The position numbers and the translations under genes were made by a program. From Candidatus Thalassarchaeum betae (GTDB taxonomy: Archaea > Thermoplasmatota > Poseidoniia > Poseidoniales > Thalassarchaeaceae), in NCBI GenBank assembly GCA_003193925.1, contig PSPG01000008.1, positions 32,001-96,000 of the forward strand: a stretch of 64,000 bases of DNA, written 5' to 3'. Position 1 is the first letter of the stretch. Every line of letters starts with the position of its first letter. Below the pieces are notes generated by a model that worked only from the letters and a program-made list of their open reading frames with translations, did no database searches and had not been told where the DNA came from. Below are positions 56,707 through 61,989 of this stretch, in pieces.

Positions 56707-58209
56707 ATGAGTGCTTACGACGAGTTGCTGGAGCGACTGAAGGACATCGATATGATCGGCCAGATTGGCGGCCTCTTGGGCTGGGACCAAGAGGTCCTGA
56801 TGCCGCCCAAGGCCGCCGCACTGCGCGCCGAGCAGCTGGCTTGGGCCTCCAAGGCAGGTCACATGCGACTGACCGACCCCCGAATCGGGGAGCTGCTCGA
56901 GGAGCTCGAGGCTAGCGAGGAGCTGGACGATGTCCAAGCGGCCAACATCAGGCTCGCTCGCGAGTCGTATGACAAGGCCACCAAGCTGCCGACCGAGTTC
57001 GTCGCCGAGATGGCCAAGCACCGCTCCGAGTCACTGGTATCATGGACCGAGGCTCGGGCGAAGGACGACTTCTCAATCTTCCGCGATAATCTCGCCAAGT
57101 CAATCGACCTCGCCCGCCAGAAAGCGGACTACCTAGGCTTTGACGAGTTGCGCTACGACGCGCTGCTAGATATCTACGAGACTGGGCTGACCGTGGCTAG
57201 GCTCGACCCGCTGTTCGCAGGATTGCGAGACAGCGTCGCGCCCCTGATCAAAGCCGTAGTAGAGAGCGAAAACCGCCCCGACATGTCGTGGGTAGAGGGG
57301 AACTCCTGGGCTCAGTCCGGACAGGAGGCGCTCAGTCAAGGGGTGACCGAGGCCATCGGATTCGACTTCGACGCCGGCCGCCGGGACGTCTCGACCCACC
57401 CGTTCTGCGGCGGGACGAACCCGGACGACGTGCGCTGGACGACTCGCTACAGCGAGTCCGACCCGTTCGGCTCACTGTACGGCTCGATGCACGAGACAGG
57501 TCACGGGACCTATGAGCAGGGGCGCCGGCGCGACCTTGACTTCCAGCCCGCCGGCGAGGCCAATGGATTGGGCGTCCATGAGAGCCAGAGCAGGATGTGG
57601 GAGAACCAAGTGGGTCGCTCAAGGGAGTTCTGCGAGTGGGTCCTGCCGCTGTGGCAGCAGCACTTCCCCGAGAACATGGAGGGTGTCAGCGCCAAGGCGC
57701 TGTGGCAGGCCGTCAACCTCGTCGAGCCGAGCCTGATACGGGTCGAGGCCGACGAGGCCACCTACAACCTCCACATCATGATCCGCTACGAGATCGAGAA
57801 GAGGCTAATCGCCGGTGACCTCGAGGTCGACGACCTGCCGGACGCCTGGGACGACATGTACGAGAAGTTCCTCGGTATCCGCGCACCCAACCGCGCCCTC
57901 GGCGTGCTGCAGGACATCCACTGGTCCATGGGGGCCTTCGGCTACTTCCCCACCTACACTCTGGGCAATTTGTACGCCGCGCAACTGCTGGCCGCCGCGC
58001 GCGAGGACCTGCCCGAGCACGACGAGCAGATCAGGCGCGGTGAGTTCGCACCACTGCTCGCTTGGATGCGCGAGCACGTGCACCAACGCGGCAGCATACT
58101 CGAGCCAGCCGACCTCATCGAGGAGGCGACCGGCTCGCCGCCCTCCCCCGACGCTTTCGTCGAGTATCTGCAAGACAAAGTCGAGCGGCTCTATGGCGTC
58201 ACTGCCTGA
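56707..58209 (+). CDS. Carboxypeptidase, family M32
   Basis: 'WDQE', 'HPF', 'HETGH', 'HESQ', 'IRVEADE', 'QDIHW', 'GYFPTY'. Confidence 0.96.
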   Translation: MSAYDELLERLKDIDMIGQIGGLLGWDQEVLMPPKAAALRAEQLAWASKAGHMRLTDPRIGELLEELEASEELDDVQAANIRLARESYDKATKLPTEFVAEMAKHRSESLVSWTEARAKDDFSIFRDNLAKSIDLARQKADYLGFDELRYDALLDIYETGLTVARLDPLFAGLRDSVAPLIKAVVESENRPDMSWVEGNSWAQSGQEALSQGVTEAIGFDFDAGRRDVSTHPFCGGTNPDDVRWTTRYSESDPFGSLYGSMHETGHGTYEQGRRRDLDFQPAGEANGLGVHESQSRMWENQVGRSREFCEWVLPLWQQHFPENMEGVSAKALWQAVNLVEPSLIRVEADEATYNLHIMIRYEIEKRLIAGDLEVDDLPDAWDDMYEKFLGIRAPNRALGVLQDIHWSMGAFGYFPTYTLGNLYAAQLLAAAREDLPEHDEQIRRGEFAPLLAWMREHVHQRGSILEPADLIEEATGSPPSPDAFVEYLQDKVERLYGVTA

Positions 58210-58259
58210 GCGACTTGCCTACGCGAAAGCCCGATAGCGGAGCATCGGGGTGTGGAGCC

Positions 58260-59348
58260 ATGGGCGGCCATACCTTGGAGGGGCTCGCATCGCTGGTGCG
58301 CAACCTCGGCAGCGCCTGCACCTTGCTGCGCATTGCCGACGACGACCTGCTGGCTGGCTCGCAAGAAGGAGAGCTGATATGCTGGTCAGTCGAATCCGGC
58401 ACCGAGCGCTGGAGGGTCGAGGTCGACGGGCCATTGTCCGACCTCGCCATCGACGGCGGTCGTGTCTACGCCTCGGCCTCAGCCAGCCTGCACGCGATTG
58501 ACCTGGATACTGGCGAGATTCTCTGGAGTCGGGGGCTCGAGGGGGCGAGCGACTACGTCCAAGCATGGGACGGCAGCGTCTGGGCTGTGTCCTCGGTCTA
58601 TGAGATCGAGGTTTCCGACTACACCGAGTCGACTGTCTGGAGATTCGACGGAATGGGGGAGCTGCAGGAGCGCTGGACTGTGCCTGAACGCGCTTGGCAC
58701 TTCGGACTGCACGAAGACGGGGGCGTCCTGCTCGGTCTCGGCAGACCCCGCTGCGGGTTCCTGAGAATCCGAAGCGGTGAGGAGCCTGAGCATCACCAGA
58801 TCGAGGGTGACAGCCCCGTCACAGTCGGAGCCTGCGGTTCGAGCGGTCGGTTCCTGATTGGCCACTCCGACGGAAGCGTCAGTACGATCGTCGGCTCCGA
58901 CGCGAAGACCGCAGGCGAGGGGTCGTCGCCGGTTCGTGCCATCACCGGCCACGGCGACGATTGGATCGCCGGTCAGGAATCGGGCCAAGTCGTCTCGAGC
59001 CGGGGTTGGACCACGACGGCGGCCGGCTCGGTGGACTCGCTCTCGATGGGGCCCTCGACATCCGAGGGCGAAGCCGTCTGGGTATCCTCGTGGAAAGGAG
59101 ACGGGGTGAGAATATCGGTCCTCGACCCAGACGGCGGCGGCTCCCTGCTGGAGTTCGACCACGGCCATAGGACAAGGCACATCCAAGCGAGCGCAGGTAA
59201 AGTCGTCCTAGGGGACTCCAGGGGGCGAATTCACCTGATCGAGGCAGGGGTCCTTACAAGGCGCGTGAAGGAATCGCCCGTGCCTGCCTCTGACGATGAG
59301 AATCGGGAGCGCCTGATGGAGCGTCTGAGGCAGCTTCGCGGCTCTTGA
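58260..59348 (+). CDS. PQQ-like beta-propeller repeat protein
   Basis: 'GTERW', 'AIDLDTGEILW' blades; ATG 58260. Confidence 0.75.
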   Translation: MGGHTLEGLASLVRNLGSACTLLRIADDDLLAGSQEGELICWSVESGTERWRVEVDGPLSDLAIDGGRVYASASASLHAIDLDTGEILWSRGLEGASDYVQAWDGSVWAVSSVYEIEVSDYTESTVWRFDGMGELQERWTVPERAWHFGLHEDGGVLLGLGRPRCGFLRIRSGEEPEHHQIEGDSPVTVGACGSSGRFLIGHSDGSVSTIVGSDAKTAGEGSSPVRAITGHGDDWIAGQESGQVVSSRGWTTTAAGSVDSLSMGPSTSEGEAVWVSSWKGDGVRISVLDPDGGGSLLEFDHGHRTRHIQASAGKVVLGDSRGRIHLIEAGVLTRRVKESPVPASDDENRERLMERLRQLRGS

Positions 59349-59404
59349 ATTCAATAGAAATTAACAGTTGGGTACCCCTGTTTCCGGTGGACTGCGGGTC
59401 TGTT

Positions 59405-59420
59405 TGAAAAGGTTTAAGTG
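59405..59420 (+). promoter_or_regulatory. Candidate archaeal BRE + TATA box (GAAAAGG-TTTAAG) for the downstream non-coding element
   Basis: Purine-rich BRE directly before TTTAAG; no credible CDS downstream. Confidence 0.55.
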
Positions 59421-59443
59421 GGTACACCTGCCCTGTCATCTTT

Positions 59444-60285
59444 GCCGCTTCTTTGGAGTGGTGTGGGGGCGCTTCGGCGCGACCCGCGGGCCACAGAACG
59501 AAGCCCCGAGAAAGGGGCGGCGGAACCCGGGATCTGGAAAGAGAACGGGGAAGAGTCGGAACGCCTGTAGGCGGGAAGACGGCGGGAGAGCCGAAGCGGA
59601 CGAGAGTGGAGAGAACCGGAGAGAACTGGACGAAAGGAAGGGGGAGGAAGGGGAAAGGAAGCTGGAGGAAGCGGAGGGGGAAGCTGAGGAAAACGTAACC
59701 GAACTGGAGAGAACTGGACGCAAGGAAGGGGAAGGAAGGGGAAAACACAACCGAGGCAGAGGAACCATCCCGAAGAGATACGCGCGGAAGGGGGAGGAGA
59801 CGAACCTGGAGGCGGCGTGGAGAACGAAGTGGAGAGACCGACGGGAACCGGACGCAAGGAAGGGGAAGAACGGGAAGGAAGCGGAGGAGGAACACGAGTG
59901 AACGAGGGCGGAGAGATCCGTGGAGGAAGCTGTATCGGACCGTGGAGAGAACCGGAGAGAACTGGACGCAAGGAAGGGGGAGGAAGGGGAAGGAAGCGGA
60001 GAACGCGAAGGGGGGGGAAACGCCCTTGGAGAGAGAAGATGAGCGAAGTGGAGAGAACCGGAGAGAACTGGACGCAAGGAAGGGGGAGGAAGGGGAAGGA
60101 AGCGGAGCGCGACGAAGTGGAGAGAACCGGAGAGAACTGGACGCAAGGAAGGGGGAGGAAGGGGAAGGAAGCGGAGGAGTCTACCCGGGGAAGCCCGGGC
60201 CTTAGGGCCCGGGGGACACCCGGACCCTGCGGAGTATGCAGGGGGGGAAGCTCCCCCATGTGCGGAACCCCCTGCTGCTCCCACC
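59444..60285 (+). ncRNA. Putative large structured ncRNA with an internal purine-rich repeat array
   Basis: Ends pair (59455-59469 with 60268-60281); terminal hairpin clusters including cUUCGg; upstream promoter; G.U pairs favour the + strand. Confidence 0.55.
59606..60176 (+). repeat. Six interspaced copies of a 60-nt unit GTGGAGAGAACCGGAGAGAACTGGACGCAAGGAAGGGGGAGGAAGGGGAAGGAAGCGGAG
   Basis: Identical copies at 59942-60001, 60048-60107, 60117-60176; degenerate copies at ~59606, ~59701, ~59829. Confidence 0.93.
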
Positions 60286-60334
60286 TGTACCGCCAAGTAC
60301 GTCATCGGCCCACCTTGTCAGCGTTACAATCATT

Positions 60335-60353
60335 GCGGAGCGTTTCGCTCCGC
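60335..60353. terminator. Perfect hairpin between the putative ncRNA and fumC
   Basis: GCGGAGCG-TTT-CGCTCCGC. Confidence 0.45.
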
Positions 60354-60387
60354 TTGAGACGGTTTCGGAAGGCTGAGAAAATCACCG

Positions 60388-61989
<1,602 letters not shown>

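Follow-up and report, generated by a model that had tools for sequence, protein, structure and literature searches.

A large, structured and abundant RNA of a new family in the archaeal family Thalassarchaeaceae, with a possible role as a trans-acting scaffold or decoy

The 64,000-nucleotide (nt) stretch of Candidatus Thalassarchaeum betae DNA analyzed here (the window: assembly GCA_003193925.1, contig PSPG01000008.1, positions 32,001 to 96,000; all positions below are counted within it) contains at 59442-60290, on the + strand, the gene of a non-coding RNA (ncRNA) of ~849 nt. We are nearly certain that this is a real RNA belonging to a new family. Our best full explanation, that it is a single-copy, abundant, structured and family-specific RNA acting in trans as a scaffold or decoy, stands in our judgement slightly below an even chance. 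An earlier reading of the sequence alone, hereafter the original prediction, had proposed at this place a large, discrete and stable RNA of the + strand, driven by a promoter of its own, structured at its ends and outside known families. That main inference is upheld here, and the sequences quoted in its favor are all found where they had been placed.

The RNA occupies what had been called the largest non-coding gap of the window, and this description holds: when frames lying mostly inside 59346-60390 are set aside, this 1045-nt interval is the longest stretch outside stop-free frames of at least 150 amino acids (aa), compared with 469 nt for the runner-up. Between 59520 and 60180 the + strand is composed of G306 A225 C97 T33, or 80% purine and 5% T, with a GC skew of about +0.5 and an AT skew of +0.7 to +0.8, in agreement with the purine-rich and nearly U-free middle noticed originally.

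The fold of both ends is supported by covariation in 52 distinct sequences. The 5' domain (59442-59587, +) has 36 pairs that are 95.8% paired, compared with 83.3% in shuffled and 38-52% in slid alignments, and both sides change in 24 pairs against 17.6 in shuffles; none of 500 shuffles reaches either value, in an alignment whose fitting to a model somewhat favors structure. The domain is closed by P1 (59442-46 with 59519-23), in which the pair 59446/59519 is C-G in 40 sequences and U-A in 12, every U being matched by an A. Within it are the P1a hairpin (59447-51 with 59455-59; CG 48/UA 4 at one pair and CG 36/UG 11/UA 5 at the next), P2 (59463-72 with 59477-87) with its UUCG loop and P3 (59503-07 with 59514-18), followed by P4 (59526-29 with 59546-49) and P5 (59555-57 with 59577-79, enclosing 59562-65 with 59570-73). 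The three 5' hairpins proposed originally (59469-80, 59503-18 and 59562-73) are real and covary as parts of this fold. In P1a, GGAG pairs locally with the leader CUYY, and the variants CUUC/GAAG and CUCU/AGAG are compensatory. Among the family-wide matches listed, the leader stem takes the forms CUCC/GGAG, CUUC/GAAG, CUCU/AGAG and CUUC/GGAG only; a C.A combination was allowed by the search pattern and none is seen. The outer part of a longer 5' leader hairpin (59444-46 with 59460-62) was tried and proved weaker than P1.

The 3' domain (60173-60290, +) has 30 pairs that are 94.6% paired in the 52 distinct sequences versus 83.2% in shuffles, with both-side changes in 20 pairs versus 12.6, and again none of 500 shuffles reaches either value. 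Helix A (60185-89 with 60219-23) encloses helix B (60194-201 with 60206-13). In helix D (60238-45 with 60268-75), CCCCCUGC pairs with GCAGGGGG; the two strands covary and share a 3-nt insertion that is matched on both sides across species. Helix E is formed by 60250-51 with 60262-63. In helix C, GCUCCCA (60277-83) can pair with UGCGGAGU, that is with UG(C)GGAGU at 60228-35; because both strands are invariant, covariation has no bearing on this helix. The domain also carries a conserved loop, CUCCCCCAUGUGC, and a conserved 3' end, GCUCCCACCU. The supported helices are nested otherwise than in the hairpins first drawn, of which the one at 60225-43 was rejected: it has no compensatory change, and its 78% pairing is reached by 500 of 500 shuffles. 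Near-invariant G.U pairs occur in both domains (59444/59521, GU in 45 sequences; 60235/60277, UG in 52 sequences), and the fold therefore fits the + strand only.

The original prediction had further joined the two ends of the RNA by a closing helix between 59455-69 and 60268-81. Nine pairs of this helix can be drawn, with 413 of 432 cells canonical (95.6%) across 48 representatives, and several of its G.U pairs would fit the + strand only. However, its variation is compensated locally and not from end to end. In sequences with A instead of G at 59455 or 59456, the 3' strand still has C (4 A.C cells at the first position, 1 at the second), and it is the leader that supplies the U: 59451/59455 is CG in 44 representatives and UA in 4, and 59450/59456 is CG in 37, UG in 10 and UA in 1. 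The four leader stem forms listed above, without any C.A combination, argue in the same direction. On the other side, 60268-75 covaries with 60238-45 and shares with it the matched insertion. A 14-pair version is 83% canonical, with 59464/60272 canonical in 0 of 48. Because each strand has a better-supported local partner, we regard the end-to-end helix as unsupported and closure of the RNA by it as improbable. Since the leader GCCGCUCC is nearly identical to the 3' GCUGCUCC, an alternative pairing or a switch is conceivable and, in our view, unlikely.

The promoter is further evidence for a discrete gene. A GAAAAGG at 59406-12, resembling a B recognition element (BRE), precedes a TATA-like TTTAAGT at 59413-19 (together 59406-59419, +), and both elements had been claimed originally. 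In 100 of 100 distinct homologues having upstream sequence, the TATA-like box starts exactly 29 nt upstream of a conserved TTGC, and the heptamer before it is a purine-rich, BRE-like (C/G/A)GAAA(G/T/C)(G/A). The RNA thus has its own + strand promoter at a fixed spacing. Given the position of the TATA-like box and the distance at which archaeal transcription usually starts from such a box, the start site would be near G59444.

Transcripts of this stretch are found in environmental libraries. It is present in part in 20 of the 24 sequencing runs listed, of which 17, from 12 studies, are recorded as RNA. We placed the contigs of four metatranscriptomes (four studies) on 58600-61400: in all four runs contig cover is confined to 59446-60291, over which the summed word depth reaches about 5.4e5 in run X1 and 1.0e4 in run X5, while the bins at 58600-59445 have depth 0 and those past 60291 a depth of at most 6.7. 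The first covered bin starts at 59446 and the last is 60198-60291. The contigs over the RNA are 54-399 nt long, and two contig ends are joined directly to sequencing adapter, one at 59450 and one 12 nt past 60287. Empty flanks in the cover of an RNA library are by themselves a weak hint; the contrast between flanks and gene fits a discrete, very abundant RNA. The extent agrees with the transcript of ~59440-60290 that had been predicted, from contigs that carry no strand information.

These data also bear on a role in cis. The upstream neighbor is a + strand gene for a PQQ_2/BamB-like beta-propeller protein (open reading frame (ORF) 58062-59348), and the downstream neighbor is the class II fumarase gene fumC (60388-61989, - strand, with Lyase_1 and FumaraseC_C domains), which is convergent with the RNA at a distance of ~100 nt. 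The RNA could accordingly be a long 3' untranslated region of the propeller gene or a convergent regulator of fumC, and the order propeller gene, RNA, convergent fumC, which is the same in every genus of Thalassarchaeaceae (Marine Group IIb, MGIIb) inspected, speaks for such a role. Against it stand the promoter at fixed spacing, the absence of cover upstream of 59446 in four runs together with a depth of at most 6.7 on fumC, and the lack of any overlap between the RNA and fumC. In two genomes of the sister family, moreover, other genes come directly after the propeller gene, without the RNA or fumC. We therefore consider a cis-acting or antisense element very unlikely.

The RNA is confined to the family Thalassarchaeaceae (Marine Group IIb, Candidatus Poseidoniales). 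By BLASTN it is found in 20 of 41 related genomes including its own (17 of 20 within the same genus), with both ends ~90% identical and a middle of variable length. Two covariance models were made, R1 for the 5' end and R2 for the 3' end. R1 matches 58 of 151 genomes in a sample of the order, with 57 of 74 in Thalassarchaeaceae, 0 of 74 in the sister family Poseidoniaceae and 0 of 2 in another family. Of 42 loci fetched, 38 have the two terminal domains on one strand, at a start-to-end distance of 476-1258 nt, the 476-nt form being one of g12. The other four have no 3' match, and in one of them the start of the contig is reached less than ~600 nt downstream of the 5' match. In g5, the most divergent genus (genera and loci are given here by our g and L labels), four of five loci are weak with the 3' model (~19 bits or no match). 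The genera without the exact 5' pattern (g3, g16 and g17), together with g11, which R1 misses, have a divergent RNA with the same promoter, ends and neighbors. Searching next to fumC in relatives, as had been proposed, thus recovers the RNA in the same neighborhood in all Thalassarchaeaceae genera inspected.

Pattern searches gave the same picture on a wider scale. A degenerate 22-nt pattern of the 5' hairpin matches 139 of 199 Thalassarchaeaceae genomes, 1 of 199 in the sister family and 0 of 2 in the third family, with 1 match for the reversed pattern used as a control. The lone sister-family match (G333:C220, locus L171) lies on a 1.7-kb contig, has the commonest Thalassarchaeaceae sequence form and is probably mis-binned. 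A scan for the 3' pattern in one genome per species (185,579 species) gave 101 stretches; of the 80 listed, 78 match R2, and the record titles shown for these name Candidatus Poseidoniales, Thalassarchaeaceae, Thalassarchaeum, Marine Group II or broader archaeal groups. The two exceptions, from Cellulomonas and Micrarchaeota, match neither model and are chance hits. The 3' pattern has no match in viral contigs, a search that a divergent form would escape, and a viral origin of the typical form of the RNA is ruled out on this ground.

The host genome (1.48 Mb, 23 contigs, 92% complete) has a single copy of the RNA. Three bins of the wider set have two copies on different contigs: G007 (contigs C34 and C42), G204 and G262. 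In G007 the copies are divergent and accompanied by separate propeller genes, whose products are 74% and 60% identical to the protein in the window; this looks like two mixed strains rather than a true duplication.

The central region of the RNA (59588-60172, +) is purine-rich and consists of core blocks common with other genera and of six modules of ~60 nt. The repeat search places the module copies (family D1, +) at 59613-75, 59701-63, 59835-97, 59949-60011, 60055-60117 and 60124-86; over 63 nt they share 65-81% identity with the reference copy, and their start-to-start spacing is irregular (88, 134, 114, 106 and 69 nt). The last two form a tandem duplication of period 69 that is 100% identical over 60044-60176. 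Each module contains a 16-nt hairpin, CYGGAC-GMAA-GGAAGG. In the RNAalifold prediction of this hairpin, whose pairs have changes on both sides, a GNRA loop is closed by a C-G pair, and a 3x3 purine internal loop separates that pair from two outer ones. Most of the representatives counted have 0-2 modules, this genus has 2-6 (six here) and one g14 species has 5.

Such repeats raise the suspicion of an artefact or of selfish DNA, be it a repeat assembly error, a CRISPR-like array or a mobile element, and six imperfect direct repeats with one perfect 69-nt tandem duplication, as well as N-gaps inside the region in some relatives (L009 and L014), are what would point that way. We give this almost no weight. 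More than 100 genomes assembled independently have the region at this same place, it is single-copy in the host genome, RNA contigs follow it exactly through repeat junctions (one of 399 nt over 59570-59968 has 3 differences), the spacing is irregular, viral contigs gave no match, and neither a transposase, a cas gene nor inverted termini lie beside the locus. In CRISPR (clustered regularly interspaced short palindromic repeats) arrays, near-identical repeats of 23-47 nt recur at regular intervals, and the unique spacers between them are of similar length. Here the unit is ~60 nt, the spacing varies from 69 to 134 nt, the copies are 65-81% identical and the element is conserved as a whole RNA in other genera, and an array was rejected.

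A low-complexity protein-coding gene, read either from a Pro/Ser/Leu-rich frame of 289 aa on the - strand or from a + strand frame rich in Glu, Gly and Arg, has in its favor that all six frames are largely open in this region and that public protein collections list unnamed - strand ORFs of 289 and 213 aa, whose clusters have 26 and 7 members. However, the six near-open frames and the mechanically called ORFs of 177-289 aa follow from the T-poor + strand, and the open frames are not kept across genera (- strand maxima of 84, 76 and 63 aa in L044 and of 93, 84 and 74 aa in L062). The spacing of the module copies puts them in different reading frames, as had been remarked originally. Lengths in close relatives differ by amounts that are not multiples of 3 (e.g. 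567, 568, 591 and 618; 644-648), none of the five mechanical ORFs has a Pfam match, the promoter is on the + strand and the covariation relies on G.U pairs of that strand only. The original reading had likewise seen no ORF of credible composition, and a coding gene is highly improbable. The 289-aa and 213-aa ORFs, antisense to the RNA at 59254-60305, appear as unnamed proteins in NCBI, JGI/IMG and ENA; these are probably spurious calls due to the T-poor + strand.

We next consider known RNAs. Over the whole window, Rfam 15 (4227 models) at gathering thresholds finds two tRNAs only. At E values up to 10 the best match in 59380-60400 is ilvH, with 25.6 bits against a threshold of 55.1, and at E values up to 0.1 seven homologous loci from seven genera give 0 matches. 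We take these models to include OLE, GOLLD, ROOL, HEARO, group II introns, IMES RNAs and C/D sRNAs. Archaeal RNase P RNA (RF00373, with a P1-P4 core and conserved regions CR-I to CR-V) and signal recognition particle (SRP) RNA (RF01857), each expected once per genome, resemble the present RNA in being abundant, stable and structured and in having their own promoters. A match to either, which had been named as grounds for giving up the original prediction, was looked for in the region at E values up to 10 and not found. Both identities are rejected because the genome encodes these RNAs elsewhere, each matching its model over the full length and above the threshold: RNase P RNA at C16:20489-20780 (227.3 bits, model positions 1-288) and SRP RNA at C19:97784-98096 (123.3 bits, model positions 1-317).

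Other candidates were rejected as well. ARAGORN finds 0 tRNA or tmRNA genes in 59300-60500. A displaced piece of ribosomal RNA does not account for the element: the 23S model is covered at positions 1-2987 in three genomes, two from the family and one from the sister family, and positions 1-1478 of 16S are covered in two genomes of the family, which were used because the host genome's own 16S is cut by a contig end. A sponge for the anti-Shine-Dalgarno sequence (16S 3' end GGAUCACCUCCU in two family genomes) would be expected to be enriched in GGAGG. The motif occurs 12 times here versus 9.4 in shuffles, and 1-7 times in 15 other representatives versus shuffle means of 1.0-6.8, the shuffle keeping mononucleotide composition only; it is not enriched.

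The center of the RNA can be aligned from genus to genus and contains common blocks, among them GGGGAAAACACAACCGA and GAGCGGGGAGACCCGUGGAGGA, as well as several covarying hairpins. In g2, g5 and g11 much of the purine-rich sequence is replaced by many hairpins with GNRA or UUCG caps. Hairpins with GNRA or UNCG loops number 3-18 per RNA (16-18 in g5 and 10 in g2), and purine content of the whole RNA is 55-74% across representatives. There are also invariant blocks that are unpaired, for instance GGGCCACA, CUCCCCCAU and GACCCUGCGGAGU. Internal tandem duplications of 250-330 nt were seen in g5 (L065 and L066) and g17 (L183); the one in g5 includes a second copy of the 3' terminal module, giving RNAs of ~1250 nt.

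A consensus of the whole RNA from 42 representatives comprises 152 pairs with 90.9% canonical pairing, versus 80% in shuffled and 35-43% in slid alignments. Both sides change in 100 of the pairs, for which the shuffles give a mean of 67 and a maximum of 78; this comparison is generous, because the structure was derived from the same alignment. Between the two domains, CCGCGGG (59484-90) and CCUGCGG (60226-32) are complementary over 7 pairs, none of which falls below 85% canonical cells, and both almost invariant; judged from their complementarity, they could form a real long-range contact. The 3' loop CUCCCCC seems, in this genus, a good partner for GGGGGAG blocks of the center; inspection by eye shows that g4 sequences do not keep this pairing, and it was dropped.

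What might such an RNA do? We tentatively favor a mechanism in which it acts in trans as a stable, multivalent scaffold or decoy. The terminal domains (~145 and ~115 nt) would give stability and hold a core partner, and together with the unpaired blocks GGGCCACA, GACCCUGCGGAGU and CUCCCCCAU and the 3' GCUCCCAMCU they may form a fixed binding surface. The variable central modules would offer many equivalent sites for protein or for RNA-RNA tertiary contacts. The center itself, made up of short hairpins with A/G-rich linkers between them, grows by tandem duplication of the hairpin module. This pattern is suggested because the RNA is large, abundant and stable-looking, its ends are locally closed and its modules are quickly gained and lost. 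Multivalency is supported by a module number of 0-6 and by one duplication that is 100% identical.

A scaffold or decoy would have parallels in CsrB/RsmZ and 6S RNA, which are abundant, trans-acting, protein-sequestering RNAs, the number of binding modules in CsrB/RsmZ varying between species. Repeated modules that vary in number between species are likewise a property of the present RNA. However, its module is a GNRA-capped hairpin with a purine internal loop, whereas that of CsrB/RsmZ is a hairpin with GGA in the loop, and archaea are not known to have a CsrA-like partner, for which no search was made here.

Several further observations weigh against the scaffold or decoy explanation. The module is absent, or unrecognizable by the motif used, in g18, g5, g2 and some g13 and g15 representatives, so that the conserved function must be something other than multivalent display of precisely this module. 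The partner protein or target is hypothetical, and the adjacent beta-propeller protein is ruled out as a dedicated partner: it occurs order-wide, in 60 of 61 genomes, and the family without the RNA has it in 29 of 29. The folding energy of the single sequence is unremarkable (z = -1.45 on the + strand and -1.39 on the - strand). Being assembled contigs, the expression data show that the RNA is present and how far it extends; they do not give its strand, exact ends or level, and their depths, summed over related organisms, are unsuited to ranking genes or RNAs.

Alternatively, the RNA could be a machine of RNA only, either a self-assembling higher-order particle held together by tetraloop and A-minor contacts or a ribozyme. 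Its size, abundance and restriction to one lineage fit this, as do the many GNRA and UNCG hairpins joined by A-rich linkers, the several invariant unpaired blocks and the strong covariation of both terminal domains. On the other hand, it matches no Rfam model of a large RNA, neither a catalytic motif nor a substrate is apparent, and the fast turnover of the middle between genera would be unusual for a ribozyme core. We hold this alternative to be unlikely, though less so than the end-to-end helix, a cis-acting element, a coding gene or an artefact.

The comparison that comes to mind is with the large 'ornate' ncRNAs of bacteria, OLE, GOLLD, ROOL and HEARO, which are ~0.5-1 kb long, lineage-restricted, abundant, multi-domain and rich in tetraloops; ROOL, GOLLD and OLE are giant RNAs that self-assemble via tetraloop and A-minor contacts. 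The present RNA is like them in size class, in its restriction to one lineage, in abundance, in its covarying multi-domain fold and in a genomic context that is uninformative on function. It differs in its archaeal host, its strongly purine-rich, module-duplicating center and the lack of any Rfam match even at relaxed thresholds. It is doubtful, and still worth stating, that we are dealing with the first large 'ornate' RNA class of Archaea, one that is expandable and acts alone as particle, catalyst or architecture; the GNRA-capped purine hairpin modules would then be bricks whose number evolves by tandem duplication.

The sequences flanking the RNA gene contain further elements. A conserved element at 59352-59399 (+), degenerate in the window, consists in relatives of the inverted repeat TGGAAAT..ATTTCCA followed by CAGTGGACTGCG; it is kept at about -100 to -40 from the RNA start in all genera compared, and also in loci L183, L184 and L198, and may be the operator of a putative regulator of the RNA or the terminator of the propeller gene. 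In the window, whose genus is g1, the conserved end of the RNA is followed at once by a small GUAC-N6-GUAC hairpin, which has counterparts in g14 and in two loci of g15. The perfect 8-base-pair hairpin GCGGAGCG-UUU-CGCUCCGC at 60335-60353, between the RNA and the fumC stop codon, had been included in the original prediction; it does exist, but it lies beyond the abundant transcript and its cover in RNA libraries, where a single one of the four runs shows any depth (at most 6.7). Comparable hairpins are found in g14 (L055-L057) and two g15 loci (L036 and L043), and other genera are without one. In the 533-aa fumC ORF, the N-terminal 70 aa (61850-61989, -) have a Pfam match to a ribbon-helix-helix (CopG-like) domain at residues 12-48 (E = 2.6e-4), and this start of the long frame is probably a separate small gene or an in-frame upstream extension of fumC.

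A full-text literature search, paper supplements aside, gave a single possibly related report (Hou et al., 2016, Sci Rep, PMC5069720). As reported there, Tan1 (Thalassoarchaea ncRNA 1) is a 229-nt, highly abundant RNA of Red Sea Marine Group II with function unknown, a 'complex secondary structure' derived from six homologues and homologues only in Candidatus Thalassoarchaea, and it is the only unknown abundant euryarchaeal ncRNA of that study. Going by this description, Tan1 and the present RNA come from the same lineage, are both abundant in marine metatranscriptome RNA and are both without known function; they differ in length (229 nt versus 476-1258 nt), and the likeness is one of description only. 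A dominant RNA of marine libraries may be broken up in assembly by repeats and microdiversity, and Tan1 may for this reason be a fragment of the present RNA, which at a guess we rate a little better than even. If so, the present work adds the full length, the 3' domain, the modular center, defined ends and the family-wide distribution, and a ten-year-old unexplained 229-nt observation becomes a complete gene.

Marine Group II is described in published abstracts as the most abundant planktonic archaea of surface oceans and as having no cultured member, so that its biology is read almost wholly from sequence. In one of its families, an RNA of 0.5-1.3 kb, encoded at one fixed location family-wide and heavily transcribed, has stood outside the catalogued families. 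If it does represent an ornate class, it would be among the most abundant non-ribosomal RNAs in MGIIb cells ocean-wide. Structural RNA biology gains from it a large, covariation-rich archaeal target, and marine metatranscriptomics a strong lineage marker together with an explanation for abundant reads that could not be assigned. Finally, the amplification of its modules, which can be traced species by species, provides a tractable case of how a structured RNA grows.

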